Shown here in pieces: positions 3,954 to 36,665 of a DNA stretch of 44,538 nucleotides. Source of the stretch: a virus; the IMG/VR virus record IMGVR_UViG_3300038313_000260. One strand, written 5' to 3'. Within the stretch, counting starts at the first letter, position 1; every line of letters begins with the position of its first letter. The notes under the pieces were generated by a model. It saw only the letters and a program-made list of their open reading frames with translations, was not told the DNA's origin and searched no databases. The translations under genes and the position numbers were made by a program.

Positions 3954-5192
3954 ATGGCGGAAGAAAACTTTTATTATTCAGAAGGAAGTTGCCAAGTAAA
4001 AGATTTAGTTAACACATTAGTAAAAGAAATTACACAAAATGCTGGAATTTATAAATGGGATTTAGTTTACCCTGATAGTATAGATAAAATAGGATCATCA
4101 GGGGGAGAAAGCACAATAAATCTTATAACAGATGATTCCGTAACAAGTAAGGTAGACACTGTATTTACAGTAGGCTCTCAAGATGATAAGTGCATTATAA
4201 AGGCTAATACAACTTATGGGAAAGAATTTTATTTGAAAATAGATAGGGGAAAAGCAGATTTAAGCAAAGAAGAAAAAAAGGCATTAATTGACTTTGATAA
4301 GTTGCATACCTATTATAATTACAATGGAAATAGTCTTAGTAGAACAGATGCGCAAGTATTAGAAGTAATGGCTGGAGTTTCTGATGAATGGAGCAAAAGT
4401 GGAGATTATACCACTTATGTTAGCGCAAAGACTAAAAGTAATTCTATAAACAATATAAGATTGCAGATATCTGATAAATTAAATAAAGATAACACTGATT
4501 TAGATATACCCAGTAATATACAAAAAGATTATAACTACAGATTGGCTTGGTATAGAAAATTACAACCAGAAATTAAAGATTTTTTACCAATTCAATATTG
4601 GATAAATGTAACTAAAGATAGTATAAATTTAGTATTACGAGGAGATCCATCAGCAGATGTTGAACCCTATGAAAACTATCTTACATCTTATGCATATATA
4701 GGAGCATTAAAACCAGTAGAAGATTCAGCTTTTACAGATGATAAATATAATTTTGGTATAACTGTATCTTCTGATATAGAGCCTAATTATGCTAAGCCTT
4801 ACGGGGAAAGAACTGCAACAGGAGTAACAGATGTATGTATGATAGCTAATAAAATAGGCATGCCATATCAACCCCATTATCCTGCTTTTTATACTGCAAA
4901 TCCATTTATAGACAAGTGTAATGTGGAGGGCTCAAGATGGAATCATAAAAAACATCAGTTTTCAGATATAACACTTGTACATCCAGTAGATATGGAACGT
5001 GGAAAAATGGAAAATGTGTTAATTGGTGATGCTAGTTCTATTTATGATACAGATAAATTAGCTTACAAAAAAGATACCGAGGAAGAGGAATATTATAAGA
5101 AATTTAAAATTACTGCACCTTTTAATTTTCTTAATAATAGTGCTAATATAAACTATTGCATAGCAATAAGATGCCCAAAAACATCAGAATAA
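3954..5192 (+). CDS. Tail/baseplate structural protein (412 aa), function unassigned
   Basis: AGGAGG RBS. Position in the tail operon. Confidence 0.55.
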   Translation: MAEENFYYSEGSCQVKDLVNTLVKEITQNAGIYKWDLVYPDSIDKIGSSGGESTINLITDDSVTSKVDTVFTVGSQDDKCIIKANTTYGKEFYLKIDRGKADLSKEEKKALIDFDKLHTYYNYNGNSLSRTDAQVLEVMAGVSDEWSKSGDYTTYVSAKTKSNSINNIRLQISDKLNKDNTDLDIPSNIQKDYNYRLAWYRKLQPEIKDFLPIQYWINVTKDSINLVLRGDPSADVEPYENYLTSYAYIGALKPVEDSAFTDDKYNFGITVSSDIEPNYAKPYGERTATGVTDVCMIANKIGMPYQPHYPAFYTANPFIDKCNVEGSRWNHKKHQFSDITLVHPVDMERGKMENVLIGDASSIYDTDKLAYKKDTEEEEYYKKFKITAPFNFLNNSANINYCIAIRCPKTSE

Positions 5193-13208: not shown

Positions 13209-14372
13209 TTATATAAATAAGCTATTTAATTTTTCAACCGCTGAAATTTTTTCTTTAGGCATTACATGAGTATATATATTAGCTGTGATTGAAATGTCAG
13301 AATGTCCTAGAAGGGTTTGAACAGTTTTAAGAGGGACATTTGCTTCAAATAATTTCGTGGCATAAGTATGACGCAAGGCATGAAATTTCTTGTGAGGTAT
13401 TTTAGCTTTTTTTAATAGATTTTTATAACTCATGAATAAATTTTTAGTGCTTAAAGGATTTCCAGTTGCAGTAGCGAAAATAAAATTATTATCCAAATAG
13501 GAAGGACCTGCTTTTATTTTTTCTAATTTTTGTTCTTTCTCATGTTCTTTTAAAACAGGAATTAAGGTTGAAGGAATAGGAACAATCCTATTAGATGTTT
13601 TGCTTTTAGGAGCCTGGGTTATAACTTCATGTCTTGAAGAACCATCAGATTCTATTATTTTTACACGTTTTATAGTTTTTTCAACCTTAACTTCCTTTAA
13701 GTCTGTGTCAATATCACTCCATTTTAATGCTAGGAGTTCTCCTTGCCTTAAACCAGTACCCAAAGCCATAAGTATTAAGCATTTCAATCTGTGCCCATTT
13801 AAAGCTTGTTTTAAAGTGTCTATTTCAGCATCAGTAAATATTGCAATTTCTGTGTCTTTAACATCTTTTTTACCTGGAATAATTATTTTTTTACCAGAAC
13901 AAGGATTCTTTAAAATATATCCTTCATCAACTGCGTAATTTAAAAATTGATTTAATAATTTATTTAGGCTTTTTATTGAACTACTGCTTTTACCATTATT
14001 GTAAAGATTATTATAGTATCTTTGAACTTGAAGGGATTTTAAGTCAGATAGTTTTAAGCTATATAATTCACTTTCTTTTATATAATTTCTGTATATTCCT
14101 TCGTAGCGTTCAAAAGAAGTTGGTTTAACTTTTATTTTCACAACTTCAAATAACCAAGTGTGCATTAAATTCCCTAATATTGTATCTTTATAATTTATAT
14201 TAAGACCATTTTTTATATTATTTATATATTCATCACGTTTATCCTCAGCTTCTGTTTTACTTTTACCATAGAATTCTTTCCTAATTAGCTTACCATTAGC
14301 ATCTCTCCCTATAGAGGTTGTTACTCTAAAATAATCATTACCGTTTTTGGTGTAGTTAGTCTTACGCGCCAT
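13209..14372 (-). CDS. int: Tyrosine integrase with N-terminal arm-type DNA-binding domain
   Basis: C-terminus HALRHTYATKL...LLGHSDISITANIYTHV (R-H-R-Y catalytic set). N-terminus MARKTNYTKNGNDYFRV...GK..RKEFYGKSKTEAE is typical of the AP2-like arm-binding domain. Adjacent to the attP candidate. Confidence 0.92.
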   Translation of the reverse strand: MARKTNYTKNGNDYFRVTTSIGRDANGKLIRKEFYGKSKTEAEDKRDEYINNIKNGLNINYKDTILGNLMHTWLFEVVKIKVKPTSFERYEGIYRNYIKESELYSLKLSDLKSLQVQRYYNNLYNNGKSSSSIKSLNKLLNQFLNYAVDEGYILKNPCSGKKIIIPGKKDVKDTEIAIFTDAEIDTLKQALNGHRLKCLILMALGTGLRQGELLALKWSDIDTDLKEVKVEKTIKRVKIIESDGSSRHEVITQAPKSKTSNRIVPIPSTLIPVLKEHEKEQKLEKIKAGPSYLDNNFIFATATGNPLSTKNLFMSYKNLLKKAKIPHKKFHALRHTYATKLFEANVPLKTVQTLLGHSDISITANIYTHVMPKEKISAVEKLNSLFI

Positions 14373-31291: not shown

Positions 31292-32741
31292 TTCTAATAT
31301 ATTTGTTGAATTATTAGATATTTATTGGGATAATCCAGTAGCTTTTGCTGAGGATATGTTAGGCTTTTATCCTGATGAATGGCAAGCTAAAGTAATGATG
31401 GACATTGCAAATACTCCTAGGGTATCTGTAAGGAGTGGCCAAGGAGTAGGTAAAACAGGATTAGAAGCGACTATAATTATATGGTTTTTATGTTGCAGAC
31501 CATTCCCTAAAGTAGTAGCTACAGCCCCAACAATGCAGCAGTTATATGATGTACTTTGGGCAGAGGTTGCTAAATGGCTTAACAAGAGCAAGGTTAAAGG
31601 CTTCCTTAAATGGACAAAGACTAAAATATATATGATAGGTGAAGAGGAAAGATGGTTTGCTACTGCTAAAACGGCAACAAAGCCAGAAAATATGCAAGGA
31701 TTCCATGAAGATTATATGCTTTTTGTAATTGATGAAGCTTCTGGTGTTGCTGACCCCATTATGGAAGCTATACTTGGTACTTTATCAGGAGCGGAAAATA
31801 AGCTCTTAATGTGTGGAAACCCTAATAAAACAAGTGGAGTTTTTTATGATAGCCATAATAGAGATAGGGCTCATTATAAAATTCATAAAGTAAGTAGCTT
31901 AGATAGTCCTAGGACTTCAAAAGAAAATATTGAAATGCTTAAGGAGAAATACCATGAGGATAGCGATGTCTACAGGGTAAGAGTTTTAGGCGAATTTCCT
32001 AAAGGTGATCTCGATACATTTATATCTTTAGAGTATGCTGAATTAGCAACACAATATGAGCTTGAAGCAATAGATTTTATTCTTCATTTTGGAGTGGACG
32101 TTGCTAGATATGGGTTGGATGAAACGATTATTGCTCCTAGAATAGGTGATAAGGTATTTAAATTAAATTCATATAGTAAGCAAAGCACAATGGTTACTGT
32201 TGGTTATATAATAAAAACATTCAGAAGTTATTTTGAAAAGTATCCATTCCTTAAAAGATGTAAAGTTAAGATTGATGATACTGGTGTAGGAGGTGGAGTA
32301 ACAGATAGGCTTGAAGAGGTAGTAAAAGAAGAGAATTTACCTATTGATGTTATCCCAGTAAATAATGGTGGGCAATCATATGATTTATACTATGCTAATT
32401 TAGGTACATGCATATGGGGAGAAGTTAGGGATACCTTAGAAGAAAATTTTTCAGCTCATATGAGAAATGAAAAGCCTAAAATACAATTACCTCAGGATGA
32501 AAGATTAATAAGCCAGCTTACTACTAGAAAATATAGGATAACAAGTAAAGGTAAACTTATACTTGAGTCTAAAGAAGGCATGAGGAAAAGAGGGTTAACT
32601 TCACCGGATCGAGCTGATGCAGTAGCATTAACATTTTATGATAGAACAGTATCTTATGATAAGAAGGTATATGAAAAAGGCATGGGACTTAAAGAAAATA
32701 TTCTTAAACAATATAAAAAGAGAGGAGGAAATGTGTTCTAA
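31284..32741 (+). CDS. terL: Terminase large subunit
   Basis: Walker [12 protein letters not shown] and Walker [11 protein letters not shown]. 485 aa. Its stop overlaps the portal start (TAATG). Confidence 0.9.
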
Positions 32742-34183
32742 TGGCTGATATAAAACAAACTTTATTAAAATTTACTGATGATCAAAAGAAAGAATTAGAG
32801 GAAATTAAAGCAGATTATTATTTTTATCATGGTGCAGTAACTGATAAAGATAAAGCTTTATTAGATAAAACTTTATTAGGTCAAAGCTGGATAAACGCTG
32901 ATGATTTGGATTATGTTCCTTCACAAGTTATAGACAATAAAATAAAATCATTAATTCATAGGCAGGCTCGTTTCTTTTTAGGGGAAGAACCTGTTTTATT
33001 ATTTAAACCAAGGCATAGTAAAGATAAAAGCACATGTGAAGAACTAAGAATATTTATAGATGATATTCTTAGTGGTAGCCAGTTTTGGAGTGAAACGATG
33101 AAGGCTTTTAGATTAGCAACTGTAACTAGAAGAGTACTTTTAAGAATGGAAGCCAACCCTGAAGAAAAAATAAGATTATATTACCATGATGTAAATGACT
33201 TTAATTATGAGCTAGATCCAAAAGATCCAAGAAAGCTTTTATCAGTTACATTTGTTAGATTAAAACAAAAAATAAATACTACTGAGATATGGAGTAGATA
33301 TACTTATAAAATGGGCAAGGTCAATAAAAAAAGCTTAGAAGAAACATGTTTGTTAACTATAGAAACATTTAATAATTTAGATTTAGAAAATCCTATAGAA
33401 GCAAAAACCATAGATACAAAATTAAGTAAGATACCTTGCTGGATAATGATTAATGAACAGGATTTAATAAATAAAAATGGTAAAAGTGATATTACAGATT
33501 TAAAACCGCTACAAAATAGCTATAATCACAGGTTATCAGACTTTAATGATGCTTTAAGATTCCTGATGTTTGGACAAACGGCTGTAATTGATGCAACAGA
33601 TGATACAGTAAATGCTTGTAGAATAGCTCCTAATGCATTAATGCCCCTAGTTAGTATAGATGGGAGACAAGCATCAGCCCAAAGAGTTGAAAGTTCATTT
33701 AGCAATGCTGAACCAGTTAAAATGTTCCTTGATATTTTAGATAAAAGTATGCATGACAAATTAAGCATACCTACTGATGACAAGCTTAAAAATGTTCCAT
33801 CAGCAAAAACTATCAAATATATATATAATGACTTAATAGCTAGAAGTGAAGAAAAATGGCATGATTGGGAACCTAACATTAGGAGTATGCTTAGATTATT
33901 AGTAGAAGCTTGCAGTAAATTTAAATGCTATAAACTATGGAATCCAGAATGGAATAACCTAGAGTATTCCATAGTATTGGATAAGCGCTATCCTATCCCT
34001 GAAGATGAAGAAGATAGGAAGAAGTTAGCCATGGAGGAGGTAAGAACCAATGTAAGAAGCCATAAGAGCTACATAAATGACTTCACAGATGATGAAGATG
34101 TAGATAATGCATTAAAAGAAATATGCGAGGATATAACTTCTATTACTGCAGCTGAAAATGAACAATTTTTAAAGGATACATAG
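32741..34183 (+). CDS. Portal protein (SPP1 gp6-like by size and position)
   Basis: 480 aa. Immediately after terL and before the MuF-family head protein. Confidence 0.8.
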   Translation: MADIKQTLLKFTDDQKKELEEIKADYYFYHGAVTDKDKALLDKTLLGQSWINADDLDYVPSQVIDNKIKSLIHRQARFFLGEEPVLLFKPRHSKDKSTCEELRIFIDDILSGSQFWSETMKAFRLATVTRRVLLRMEANPEEKIRLYYHDVNDFNYELDPKDPRKLLSVTFVRLKQKINTTEIWSRYTYKMGKVNKKSLEETCLLTIETFNNLDLENPIEAKTIDTKLSKIPCWIMINEQDLINKNGKSDITDLKPLQNSYNHRLSDFNDALRFLMFGQTAVIDATDDTVNACRIAPNALMPLVSIDGRQASAQRVESSFSNAEPVKMFLDILDKSMHDKLSIPTDDKLKNVPSAKTIKYIYNDLIARSEEKWHDWEPNIRSMLRLLVEACSKFKCYKLWNPEWNNLEYSIVLDKRYPIPEDEEDRKKLAMEEVRTNVRSHKSYINDFTDDEDVDNALKEICEDITSITAAENEQFLKDT

Positions 34184-34232: not shown

Positions 34233-34676
34233 ATGGCTATGGAATTGGTGATTATATTTTATATACTATTTATAATATTTCTTTGTGCATTACTTGTAGC
34301 AGCTTTAACAGGTAGTAAAATACTAAAACATAAAAAGGATGCAATTGTTGTATATTCAATGGGAACTATAATTTATGGAACTTTATTTGTTTTAACTTTA
34401 AGGTTACAACTTAATGGTTATGACTATGTATATGTTGAGCCGACGAATAATACACCTATTAATAGACAAGCTAGTAGTGAAGCTGGTGGAAATAACAAAG
34501 GTAATCCACAAGGGGACGGGCATGAAGGTAAAATAAAAGGGAATATTAATAAAAATACAGGAGAAAAAATATACCATGTTCCAGGTAGCACTTATTATGA
34601 TAGAACTAAAGCAGAAAGATGGTTTAATACTGAAGAAGAAGCTAAGAAAGCTGGATACAGAGCACCTAAAAGATAG
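34233..34676 (+). CDS. Moron: two-TM membrane protein with C-terminal YH-PG--YY---K----F-TEEEA--AGYR--K motif
   Basis: TM helices [21 protein letters not shown] and [18 protein letters not shown]. The C-terminus [36 protein letters not shown] resembles what I recall being annotated as a sunset domain. Confidence 0.6.
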
Positions 34677-34689
34677 GTGCTTTTATTAT
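34661..34689 (+). terminator. Rho-independent terminator overlapping the moron stop codon (TAGGTGCTT family)
   Basis: AGCACCTA (34661-34668) pairs with TAGGTGCT (34674-34681), followed by TTTATTAT. Confidence 0.7.
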
Positions 34690-34710
34690 GCCTGAAAGTG
34701 AGGCAGTGAT

Positions 34711-36150
34711 ATGAATAAATACTTAGAATTAGTAGATAAAGCACAAAAACAAAGGATAAGGCTCACTAATCAACAAATAAAGAATATAAGAGATTTATAT
34801 AAAGATGTGGCGAAAGACTTAGGGAGAAGAGCTAAAGGAGCAAATAAGGGCAGTTTAAATGAAAGATGGTTAACAGATTATCAAAAACAGTTTAAATTAG
34901 ACATAAAAGAATTAAATAAGATACTTAGAAGAGGCATAGAAAGCTCCATGTTAAAGGGGGCTGAATATGCAACAGGTATTCAGATGAATTTCTTTAATTT
35001 ATTAGATGTTAAATACAAACTAAACTCAAAGGAAACTTTCTCCAATATGTTTTCTAAAATACCACAGCAAGCACTAGAAGAACTTGTAAATGGGCAGTTT
35101 TATAAAGATGGTAGGGGACTTTCGGAGAGAATATGGCTCAACGAAATTAAAGCTAATGCAGATTTTGATTATATAATTCAAAAGGGATTAGCGGAAAAGA
35201 AAAACGTTTATGATTTGGCAAGAGACTTATCGGATTATGTTAATCCAGATGTAAAAAAGGATTGGAACTTTAAAAATATTTATCCAAGTGTAGGCAATAA
35301 AAAAATAGAATATAATAGTTTTAGGTTAGCTGTAACTTCTATAAGCCATGCATATCAATTGTCTATGCAAAGGTCTTGTAAGGCTAATCCATTTGTAGAG
35401 GGAATAGAATGGCATACTTCTAATAGTCATAGAGGGCCATGCTCTTTATGTAGCGGAAGAGAAGGAAAGGTATATAAGCCTGATGAATTGCCTTTAGACC
35501 ATCCAAATGGAGTTTGCTACTTCACACCAGTTATAACTAAAAGTATGGAGGACATTGGGTCAGAGCTTCATGATTGGTTATATGGGGGAAGCAACAGTAA
35601 ATTGGATGATTGGTATAAGGAATATGTTGAAAATAGCTCAGAAACAATAGCAGGAGAAAAGAAAACTCAAAATAAATCTAGCGATAAAAAGCAATTTGAA
35701 AACTATAAGAAAGTTTTAGGAAAAGAAATGCCCAAATCCTTTGATAAATTCCAGGAGTTAAAGTATAATAATGTTAATGAATGGATATCTTTAAAAATTA
35801 ATTATAGAGATACGAAGAGATATAATAAAATAGTTGGAGAGGCTAGCCATTTAAATATTAAAGGAATACCGATTAAGAATATAGATAGAATTGACTTAGA
35901 AGAATATGAATTTGATTATAAGCATATTAACAATGAAAGACAGCATGGTGTTACTAAGGACATGGCTCAGAAGTTTATAAACAATTCTAAAGCTGCATAT
36001 AGTAGATGGAATGGGCAAATAGTTGTATATGTATCGGAAGATGGATGCAGTGTTGTTAATATCAAGGATAAGAAAGTAAGTACATCATATAAAAGTGGTG
36101 AATATGACGATAAATTCAAGAAATTAATGGAGGTATTGAAAGATGATTAG
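34711..36150 (+). CDS. MuF/SPP1 gp7-family minor head protein with a roughly 200-aa C-terminal extension
   Basis: The MuF core ends at WHTSNSHRGPCSLCSGREGKVYKPDELPLDHPNGVCYFTPV (about aa 275). An additional domain runs to aa 479. Confidence 0.85.
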   Translation: MNKYLELVDKAQKQRIRLTNQQIKNIRDLYKDVAKDLGRRAKGANKGSLNERWLTDYQKQFKLDIKELNKILRRGIESSMLKGAEYATGIQMNFFNLLDVKYKLNSKETFSNMFSKIPQQALEELVNGQFYKDGRGLSERIWLNEIKANADFDYIIQKGLAEKKNVYDLARDLSDYVNPDVKKDWNFKNIYPSVGNKKIEYNSFRLAVTSISHAYQLSMQRSCKANPFVEGIEWHTSNSHRGPCSLCSGREGKVYKPDELPLDHPNGVCYFTPVITKSMEDIGSELHDWLYGGSNSKLDDWYKEYVENSSETIAGEKKTQNKSSDKKQFENYKKVLGKEMPKSFDKFQELKYNNVNEWISLKINYRDTKRYNKIVGEASHLNIKGIPIKNIDRIDLEEYEFDYKHINNERQHGVTKDMAQKFINNSKAAYSRWNGQIVVYVSEDGCSVVNIKDKKVSTSYKSGEYDDKFKKLMEVLKDD

Positions 36151-36307
36151 GTGTCCTATAATTAATGAGGATATAGATATAGGGGAATGCGTAACTATAG
36201 TTGATGTTTGCGAAGAATGTATAAAAGAAACCGTAATATCAGATAAGATTAAAAAGATAGATAACTGGAAAGAAATATGTAAGAAATGTGAAAACCATAA
36301 TAATTGA
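36143..36307 (+). CDS. Cys-rich 54-aa protein translationally coupled to the MuF gene (not in the ORF track)
   Basis: GGAGGT RBS 8 nt upstream. ATGATTAG overlap with the MuF stop. Six Cys including C-EE-C and C-KK-C pairs (zinc-ribbon-like). Confidence 0.55.
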   Translation: MIRCPIINEDIDIGECVTIVDVCEECIKETVISDKIKKIDNWKEICKKCENHNN

Positions 36308-36308
36308 T

Positions 36309-36347
36309 AAGCACTTACTAAATAAAAATAGTAGGTGCTTTTATTAT
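36309..36347 (+). terminator. Rho-independent terminator (TAGGTGCTT family)
   Basis: AAGCACTTAC (36309-36318) pairs with GTAGGTGCTT (36331-36340), followed by TTATTAT. Confidence 0.7.
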
Positions 36348-36371
36348 GCTCTGGGAATGGGGTGAAAGTTA

Positions 36372-36665
36372 ATGAATATATCAAGTAAGGTTAAGATAGG
36401 TGGAGTTAATTATAAAGTTATTGAATGTAATAATCCATCAGAAGAAGATCCTAATGTAGATGGGCAGATATTATATTCGAAGCAAGAAATAAGACTTAAA
36501 AATGACATGTCTAGAGAATATAAAGAAAATATATTTTTACATGAAATTATTCATGGGATATTTGAACACATTGGTTTTGAACAAGATGAAGCGATTGTTA
36601 TTAGATTAAGCAATGCACTACATGGATTCATAAAAGATAATCCAGAAATATTCAAGGATGAATAG
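36372..36665 (+). CDS. 97-aa HExxH-motif protein (minimal metallopeptidase-like)
   Basis: FLHEIIHGIFEH contains HExxH plus a third His five residues later. Sits between MuF and the scaffold gene. Confidence 0.5.
   Translation: MNISSKVKIGGVNYKVIECNNPSEEDPNVDGQILYSKQEIRLKNDMSREYKENIFLHEIIHGIFEHIGFEQDEAIVIRLSNALHGFIKDNPEIFKDE

Follow-up and report, generated by a model that had tools for sequence, protein, structure and literature searches.

The 44,538-nucleotide viral sequence IMGVR_UViG_3300038313_000260 (the window, by which we mean this whole stretch of DNA) encodes at 34711–36150 (+) a 479-residue minor head protein of the MuF/SPP1 gp7 type. Its C-terminal domain (CTD) and a translationally coupled 54-residue protein are exchanged together among otherwise unrelated phage head proteins. 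We interpret this pair, with moderate confidence, as a virion-delivered ribonuclease (RNase)-like effector mounted on MuF and its cognate inhibitor, a putative zinc-binding protein, the two being exchangeable as a cassette. Sequence comparisons bring out the anatomy of this cassette, its exchange, the strict linkage between domain and partner, and the restriction of the CTD family to MuF-type proteins. The window MuF belongs to a known class, the MuF polymorphic toxins or polyvalent effectors, whose members are thought to be packaged in the phage head and injected with the DNA. MuF-anchored polymorphic effectors, including RNases of the BECR fold fused to MuF, are already known, and in a 2017 survey about two thirds of the MuF C-terminal extensions had no assigned domain.

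The virion-anchoring part of the protein comprises residues 1–305 (34711–35625, +). Three PHROG families match the protein with E-values from 4.5e-175 to 3.6e-27: residues 1–363 match PHROG 21401 (E 4.5e-175; labelled "pilot protein for DNA ejection" in PHROGs), residues 1–311 match PHROG 1657 "head morphogenesis" (E 4e-84), and PHROG 115 also matches the N-terminal part. A tblastn search with the MuF protein returned matches in 100 phage records, including "head morphogenesis" proteins, all of them confined to approximately residues 1–305. Pfam PF04233 remained below threshold on this protein, and NCBIfam TIGR01641 reached an E-value of 0.012 only. Judged from its sequence, the window protein is a divergent member of the MuF superfamily, of the kind for which Jamet et al. 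needed the separate models MuF3 and MuF4 (PMC5576092). Despite the PF04233 miss, its MuF-superfamily N-terminal part and its location in the head and packaging module are those of the class: an SPP1-type portal gene (32741–34183) lies upstream, and scaffold and major capsid genes lie downstream. The sequence ..HPNGVCYFTPV lies at about residue 275, and the protein has about 175 additional residues at its C-terminus, in agreement with an earlier note on this DNA, which had claimed an extra C-terminal domain on MuF. We take the window to be a Clostridium phage or prophage, temperate in view of the integrase gene at 13209–14372 and the head-gene neighbourhood. Its nearest relatives are Clostridium tetani prophages, and a metagenome contig holds a near-identical copy (99.86% over 4.2 kb).

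Amino acid identities to related proteins, compared separately for the backbone (residues 1–305), the linker (306–363) and the CTD (364–479), form a mosaic. The closest phage, phiCT19406A, is 79.7% identical to the window over residues 1–305 and has no similarity in the linker or the CTD. Its slot holds an unrelated domain with a HEMGH (HExxH) motif followed by a different overlapping open reading frame (ORF) of 66 residues, and the phiCD418 slot likewise holds an HExxH domain. With phiCT453A, the backbone is 34% identical over 70 residues, the linker is 63% identical and the CTD has no counterpart: the linker motif (..DKKQHKRYMDVLGNGVPKIFDKFQELKYNN..) leads into a Pfam EndoU_bacteria domain (E 9e-26), then an acidic ORF of 115 residues. 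In the six loci L005, L009, L024, L026, L027 and L028, the backbone is 19–27% identical or shows no similarity, the linker is 53–67% identical and the CTD 63–80% identical; these unrelated MuF or min_cap2 backbones all bear the linker, CTD and small ORF of the window. The linker is thereby found at 53–67% identity in phiCT453A, in P0007 and in the six other backbones, and is missing from phiCT19406A. The question raised earlier, whether related MuF genes bear different CTDs at the same junction, is answered positively by the HEMGH domain of phiCT19406A and the EndoU domain of phiCT453A. The same N-terminal region is found with unrelated CTDs and the same CTD is found on unrelated N-terminal regions, which supports the earlier idea of an exchangeable, MuF-anchored effector with an adjacent partner, since CTD and small ORF together occur on at least six other backbones of 19–27% identity or beyond alignment.

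The exchange junctions can be followed at nucleotide resolution. Starting at the portal gene, DNA homology with phiCT19406A extends to 35626, is interrupted, and resumes at 36308, at the terminator; on the terminator side, identity with phiCT19406A and phiCT453A is 90–98%. Against other Clostridium backbones, only 35669–36349 matches at the DNA level, with a left edge at 35669–35683. This edge lies in the helical linker (residues ~306–382; 35626–35856, +), which AlphaFold2 (AF2) models as helices to about residue 381. The linker contains a conserved junction motif, SDKKQFENYKKVLGKEMPKSFDKFQELKYNN (35680–35772, +), common to MuF proteins with differing C-terminal domains; FENYKKVLGKEMPKSFDKFQELKY corresponds to residues 329–352. 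The right edge is an intrinsic-terminator-like hairpin with a 12-bp stem and a T-run, found by sequence scan at 36309–36350 (+), and hairpins resembling it come after the small ORF in most close loci. At the sequence level, linker, domain, small ORF and terminator (~35670–36350) behave as one mobile cassette, which would move between phages by recombination, with the linker and the terminator serving as the two arms. Terminator-like hairpins are found on both sides of the MuF gene and small ORF (34661–34691 and 36309–36350), both ending in the identical 18-mer TAGGTGCTTTTATTATGC (34674–34691 and 36332–36349). The first overlaps the stop codon of the preceding 147-residue ORF, and the second is 90–98% identical in phiCT19406A and phiCT453A although the preceding cassettes differ.

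The small ORF (36143–36307, +) encodes an acidic 54-residue mini-protein, the putative inhibitor or partner of the CTD. The description first given of it, as a six-cysteine ORF coupled to MuF behind GGAGGT and followed by a terminator, is accurate as to its arrangement: the Shine-Dalgarno sequence, as read from the DNA (GGAGGT, 36129–36134, +), lies 8 nucleotides upstream of the ATG (36143–36145), this ATG and the MuF stop codon TAG (36148–36150) both fall in ATGATTAG, the two genes overlap by 8 nucleotides, and the 36309–36350 hairpin follows. The six cysteines are present, but only four of them are conserved: in 18 small-protein sequences C4, P5, C16, C46 and C49 are invariant, while C23 and C26 vary. 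The ORF matches PHROG 27009 (E 4e-20), has at least 18 homologues with the four invariant cysteines, and is preceded at the same place by GGAGG in 12 of 12 distinct loci, which together argue that it is not a chance ORF. The GGAGGT sequence is itself encoded by Glu-Val codons of the last CTD helix (..MEVL..), and both residues are invariant or near-invariant in alignment A4. This Glu-Val pair is therefore doubly constrained, since the same codons write the Shine-Dalgarno sequence of the small ORF.

The invariant cysteines form two knuckles with four potential ligands, a CP knuckle (C4) with C16, then a CxxC (C46 and C49), and the AF2 model places a beta-hairpin at the first knuckle. This pattern suggests a zinc-ribbon-like, putatively zinc-binding protein. 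The small protein has no Pfam family match, and a profile search of the PDB returned only the LysW zinc knuckle, weakly (E 0.048). Acidity is a family trait, seen in 17 of 18 members (median isoelectric point (pI) 4.8, net charge −3), and the small ORFs of the EndoU and HExxH cassettes, unrelated to it, are also acidic (pI 4.4–4.5).

The linkage between CTD and small ORF is reciprocal, and both genes lie inside the exchanged DNA segment. The nine database homologues of the 54-residue ORF (P0008–P0016) are all directly downstream of MuF or min_cap2 proteins that end in the CTD. Conversely, all loci fetched through the CTD have the small ORF, including those with CTDs only 30–40% identical to that of the window. 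It follows the CTD in 26 of the 26 loci with downstream sequence (about 11 distinct contexts), overlapping it by 8, 11, 20 or 23 nucleotides or abutting it directly. Mosaic CTDs and a small ORF kept at every one of these loci run counter to the alternative first envisaged, in which the extension would be universal and structural and the small ORF unconserved; as a universal structural part of gp7 homologues, the extension is ruled out by the mosaic pattern of segment identities.

The CTD itself (residues ~383–479, 35857–36150, +; envelope of the hidden Markov model 364–479) includes DYKHINNERQHGVTKDMAQKF and SRWNGQIVVYVSEDG within the last ~110 residues of MuF. Scans against Pfam, NCBIfam, PADLOC and PHROG, including scans with 23 diverse members, assigned it to no family, and sequence and profile searches of the PDB returned nothing relevant. 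The window CTD and small ORF had no tblastn match in 50,697 phage records, among which a distant family member matched one faecal metagenomic phage only (MT835552). A word-indexed search recovered 7 CTD relatives only; an exhaustive profile search recovered 348 clusters at E ≤ 1e-3, 199 of them at E ≤ 1e-10. These clusters come mostly from metagenomes and from Clostridia/Lachnospiraceae prophages and are almost missing from isolated phages. Among GTDB species representatives, the close CTD subfamily is found in Clostridium spp. and Zhenhengia yiwuensis. Of 154 proteins, 148 have the domain no more than 10 residues from their C-terminal end. Its 56 representatives of at least 300 residues include 30 with Phage_min_cap2 and 22 with Phage_Mu_F, together 52 fusions to MuF-type proteins, and one with VG15, and none has an LXG, Rhs, CdiA or other toxin-trafficking domain. 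The C-terminal domain of P0007 was considered as a distant homologue and dropped, the hhalign match being non-significant (E 0.13).

Most of the "standalone" CTD proteins of 130–220 residues proved to be fragments or frameshifted or interrupted MuF genes, and were not retained as separate genes. In L021 (1630–4663), a Phage_min_cap2 gene is split into a MuF part (255 residues) and a linker-plus-domain part (220 residues) by three small ORFs, one with a weak match to the AP2 domain as in homing endonucleases; this organization points to an intron or a mobile insertion in the gene. Simpler, frameshift-type splits are found in L003 and L004, and the gene is intact in the isolate genome L028. A genuine MuF-less case is provided by L015–L017 (e.g. 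L015 4001–4706), where a 177-residue CTD protein is followed by a 60-residue four-cysteine partner. There is no MuF or portal gene upstream of this CTD gene, and an S78 prohead protease gene and a major capsid gene lie directly downstream, a context resembling that of a small phage-like or satellite element. This version of the CTD, with a shortened HIN motif (HV-AER) and Arg instead of His412, is possibly an inactive variant.

Structure prediction gave a consistent picture of the domain. AF2 modelled residues 301–479 with a predicted local distance difference test (pLDDT) score of 86.7, as four linker helices followed by an alpha/beta domain, and residues 368–479 concatenated with the small protein with a pLDDT of 92.7 and a predicted template-modelling score (pTM) of 0.76; pLDDT exceeds 90 across the CTD. 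The predicted elements are helices 403–409 and 416–424, strands 428–432, 437–441, 445–450 and 455–461, and helix 467–476. Both models have the same topology of a pre-alpha helix, an alpha helix, four antiparallel strands and a terminal alpha helix, in which we recognize the predicted core of the BECR fold; "pre-alpha + alpha + beta1-4" is the topology of the colicin-like BECR RNases (2026 bioRxiv preprint, 10.64898/2026.08.28.747851). With both models, a Foldseek search of the PDB listed the colicin E5 ribonuclease domain (3ao9, 2djh, 3vj7, 2a8k) and CdiA-CT NC101 (5i4q, 5i4r), which were alone among the small domains near the top of the lists in being aligned from end to end. In BFVD, the matches included a phage protein named "Colicin D" (probability 0.98, E 0.046) and a MuF-type "minor capsid protein" (E 4e-4).

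The residue conservation is compatible with this topology. In 109 representatives, H405 is conserved at 100% (109/109), N407 at 83%, E/D409 at 85%, R410 at 94%, H412 at 93%, W433 at 96%, G435 at 98%, G445 at 100% and T458 at 98% (107/109, plus one Ser). The model places H405 on the short first (pre-alpha) helix and T458 on the last strand, the colicin-like arrangement of His and Thr. A His on the N-terminal helix combined with a Thr or Ser on the C-terminal strand is also seen in colicin D and in the MuF-fused PBECR domains (Iyer et al., PMC5512222), and the colicin D signature reads H..[ED], [ST], [TS]xxK (Zhang et al., PMC3482391). The CTD is probably, on this modelling, a BECR-like RNase of a family for which there is no existing model. 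We call it so because of the predicted structure and the residue pattern, not because of a significant match, and we file it as "BECR-like, new family" rather than as a member of PBECR1-5, Colicin_D, Ntox50 or EndoU because no profile matched. Fold topology, the conserved His/Arg/His/Thr set and the slot common with EndoU point to metal-independent RNase activity. The earlier guess of an RNase-like site including KHINNERQH is strengthened by the predicted BECR topology and by these conserved residues, but the fold matches stay below significance.

The same data bear on a different reading, to which we give little credence, according to which the CTD is a non-enzymatic extension, structural or binding nucleic acid or the portal, that helps in head assembly, DNA packaging or ejection with the small zinc protein as assembly partner, much like the catalytically inactive MuF-C domain proposed for phage Mu gp30. 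Such a role would agree with the occurrence of the CTD exclusively on MuF/min_cap2 proteins or beside head genes and not on other toxin delivery systems, with the lack of any match to toxin models and with the weakness of the fold matches. However, unrelated domains replace the CTD in close relatives that share the backbone, portal and capsid genes; assembly of this type of head therefore does not need the CTD. The near-invariant His, Arg, His and Thr sit at BECR catalytic positions and not on a hydrophobic interface, and the linker slot is one that EndoU, a bona fide nuclease domain, also occupies. We consider a purely structural role unlikely, given the unrelated domains in phages that share the head genes.

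Several observations weigh against an RNase-like effector kept in check by its own inhibitor. The Foldseek matches to colicin E5 and CdiA-CT have E-values of 0.2–1.5 and template-modelling (TM) scores of 0.46–0.55 on the target, and are not significant alone. Among the 23 diverse members, none matched Pfam PBECR1-5, Colicin_D, Ntox50, EndoU or DUF6883 at E ≤ 10, and the hhalign comparison of the CTD profile with the EndoU domain of phiCT453A was not significant either (E 0.35). The core CTD lacks a basic character, with a pI of about 7 in the window and a median of 8.1 in the family. The CTD is seen only on MuF-type proteins, while most MuF toxin domains are also found in other polymorphic toxin families (PMC5576092). 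Finally, in-frame fusions between the CTD and the small protein occur in two lineages, which is unusual for a toxin-immunity pair: the first is represented by P0120 on 3 contigs and by its sequence variant P0199, the second by P0124, with a different connector. Concatenating the two window proteins directly gives the exact spacing of P0120. These natural fusions fit a cofactor or accessory domain equally well, and argue that separation of domain and partner is not obligatory.

It is mainly for this reason that we keep a second alternative, rather improbable in our opinion, in which the mini-protein is an accessory or cofactor subunit acting in folding, in RNA or ribosome recognition or in packaging, and accompanies the domain into the capsid and on to the next host. 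Recurrence of the fusions in two independent lineages, one of them on 4 contigs in 2 variants, is what such a subunit would predict, as are the strict linkage over deep divergence, the stoichiometric coupling, the high pTM of the concatenated model and the persistence of linkage where N407/H412 of the CTD are altered (L015–L017). On the contrary, the mini-protein is acidic family-wide, which is usual for nuclease inhibitors and unusual for RNA-binding zinc ribbons, and the same gene slot holds unrelated small acidic ORFs in the EndoU and HExxH cassettes, as would be expected for cognate immunity genes. The label "immunity", raised earlier for the small ORF, is a putative one, and the natural fusions complicate it.

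Taken as an RNase-like effector with its inhibitor, the locus would operate as follows. Residues 1–305 would be the head- and portal-associated carrier, the helical linker (~306–382) the junction between carrier and effector, and residues ~383–479 the effector, whose BECR fold would be of the colicin D/E5 type and whose activity would most likely be that of a metal-independent endoribonuclease. Catalysis would involve His405 (first helix) and Thr458 (last strand), along with Arg410 and His412. The 54-residue protein would be made by translational coupling in near-stoichiometric amounts; binding to the effector is suggested by its linkage with the domain, by the natural fusions, by its acidic pI and by the confident model of the two joined (pTM 0.76). 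This putatively zinc-binding protein would most likely hold the effector inactive in the producing cell in an immunity-like manner, as suggested by its acidity and by the position that other small acidic ORFs hold in sister cassettes. From the literature on SPP1 gp7, MuF toxins and polyvalent proteins, the product would be expected to be packaged in the head and delivered with the DNA.

What the delivered RNase would act on is a separate matter. It could work for the phage in the new host, by takeover or by countering RNA-based defence such as CRISPR RNAs, instead of being an inter-bacterial toxin or a modulator of lysogeny. We see this as a genuine possibility though not the one we favour; it concerns the target and is compatible with the mechanism outlined above. 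It accords with the location of the gene carrying the MuF-linked domain in a late operon and with the restriction of the family to MuF, a feature common with the PBECR domains for which Iyer et al. put this role forward (PMC5512222), whereas Jamet et al. favour toxin or lysogeny-decision roles (PMC5576092). A bolder reading, which we put forward tentatively, is that of a hitherto undescribed family of phage-exclusive two-component effectors, in which a colicin-like RNase is gated by a zinc-dependent acidic mini-domain, present either as a separate coupled subunit or as a fused tail, and in which the gate could be relieved as the protein unfolds and loses its zinc during ejection through the tail. 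If true, a polymorphic BECR toxin would here have a zinc-ribbon "immunity" for the first time, and the virion effector would be self-arming.

A sigma-70-like promoter match, the best in the region, lies in linker codons (FDKFQELKYNN): TTGATA-17-TATAAT, 11/12, at 35741–35769 (+). Promoter-like sites are no commoner overall in the region than in shuffled sequence. Of 12 loci, 8 have a match of at least 10/12 upstream of the CTD, among them the unrelated L015, whose match (at 4187) is a full 12/12. Nuclease colicins have internal immunity-gene promoters, and we speculate that 35741–35769 might be an internal, constitutive promoter for the small ORF; its conservation may equally be a by-product of conserved coding in AT-rich DNA.

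Two neighbouring genes complete the description of the locus. The portal and MuF genes are separated by an ORF of 147 residues (34233–34676, +) encoding a predicted membrane protein with a conserved C-terminal tail, which matches PHROG 21287 "membrane associated protein" and is present in phiCT19406A too; its homologue in L013 has a Pfam ArfC match. Directly after the cassette, a 97-residue ORF (36372–36665, +) contains an HExxH motif (FLHEIIHGIFEH) and has a match to PHROG 1233 (function unknown) that covers the first third of this family, with no Pfam match. Its DNA is 90% identical to that of the gene in the same place in phiCT453A, where the MuF domain is of the nuclease type, and the ORF is missing from phiCT19406A, whose own MuF has an HExxH domain. 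We speculate that this ORF might encode a stand-alone peptidase that processes the MuF effector.

The locus defines one domain family among the MuF extensions, with a predicted fold, candidate catalytic residues (H405, R410, H412 and T458), a partner and exact limits. New in this respect are a CTD family for which Pfam, PHROGs, NCBIfam and PADLOC have no model, its restriction to MuF-type proteins, the putative zinc-binding partner with its occasional fusion, and the nucleotide-level view of the exchange junctions, where the conserved linker and terminator reveal cassette exchange between phages. CTD and partner constitute a directly testable toxin-inhibitor or effector-cofactor pair. Should RNase activity and zinc-dependent control prove true, they would represent a new small RNase-inhibitor module and a handle on the non-DNA cargo of phage heads.

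The organization of the locus closely resembles that of the MuF polymorphic toxins (PMC5576092; PMC3482391), in which an N-terminal MuF-superfamily head protein encoded near the portal gene is combined with a swapped, variable CTD and a small ORF (<150 residues) immediately downstream; 89% of MuF toxin genes precede an ORF of fewer than 150 residues (Jamet et al., PMC5576092). As in those systems, the phage is temperate and its host a Firmicute, and the EndoU and metallopeptidase-type domains that sister phages carry in the same slot are both listed MuF toxin domains. Unlike the catalogued MuF toxins, the window CTD belongs to no catalogued family and would join the "extension with unknown domain" category of Jamet et al.; it is so far found only on MuF-type proteins, its partner has four invariant cysteines and is fused to the domain in some lineages, and the MuF part lies below the Pfam PF04233 threshold.

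The domain also resembles the PBECR domains (PMC5512222) and the "colicin-like" BECR group (10.64898/2026.08.28.747851) in its predicted pre-alpha helix, alpha helix and four-stranded sheet, in its C-terminal fusion to MuF and in its restriction to phages. It differs from PBECR in having no profile match to Pfam PBECR1-5 or DUF6883, in its additional conserved Arg410/His412 pair and C-terminal helix, and in its obligate, putatively zinc-binding partner, which neither PMC5512222 nor the 2026 preprint describes; zinc is not mentioned in the text of the latter. Colicin D/E5 and CdiA-CT(NC101) provide the best whole-domain structural matches (PDB 3ao9, 2djh, 5i4q/5i4r; TM about 0.5 on the target), and H405...E409 and T458xxK461 of the window recall the colicin D signature H..[ED] ... 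[ST] ... [TS]xxK (PMC3482391). A small acidic gene is adjacent in both cases, encoding a known inhibitor in the colicin and CdiA systems and a putative one in the window. In contrast, sequence identity to these domains is only 13–21% with Foldseek E-values above 0.2, the presumed delivery route is the phage head and not colicin translocation or contact-dependent inhibition, and ImmD, ImmE5 and CdiI are not zinc proteins, which the window partner is predicted to be.

In the MqsR-MqsA pair, a BECR (RelE-like) RNase is bound by the small four-cysteine zinc-binding domain of its antitoxin. No sequence or profile similarity between MqsA and the window partner was detected, the profile of the small ORF matching only the LysW zinc knuckle (E 0.048). 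MqsA differs from the window partner in the spacing of its cysteines (CxxC...CxxC versus C-11-C...C-2-C in the window); it also has a DNA-binding domain, and the window pair lies among phage head genes and not in a toxin-antitoxin operon. MqsR-MqsA offers a functional analogy for a zinc mini-domain that partners a BECR RNase.

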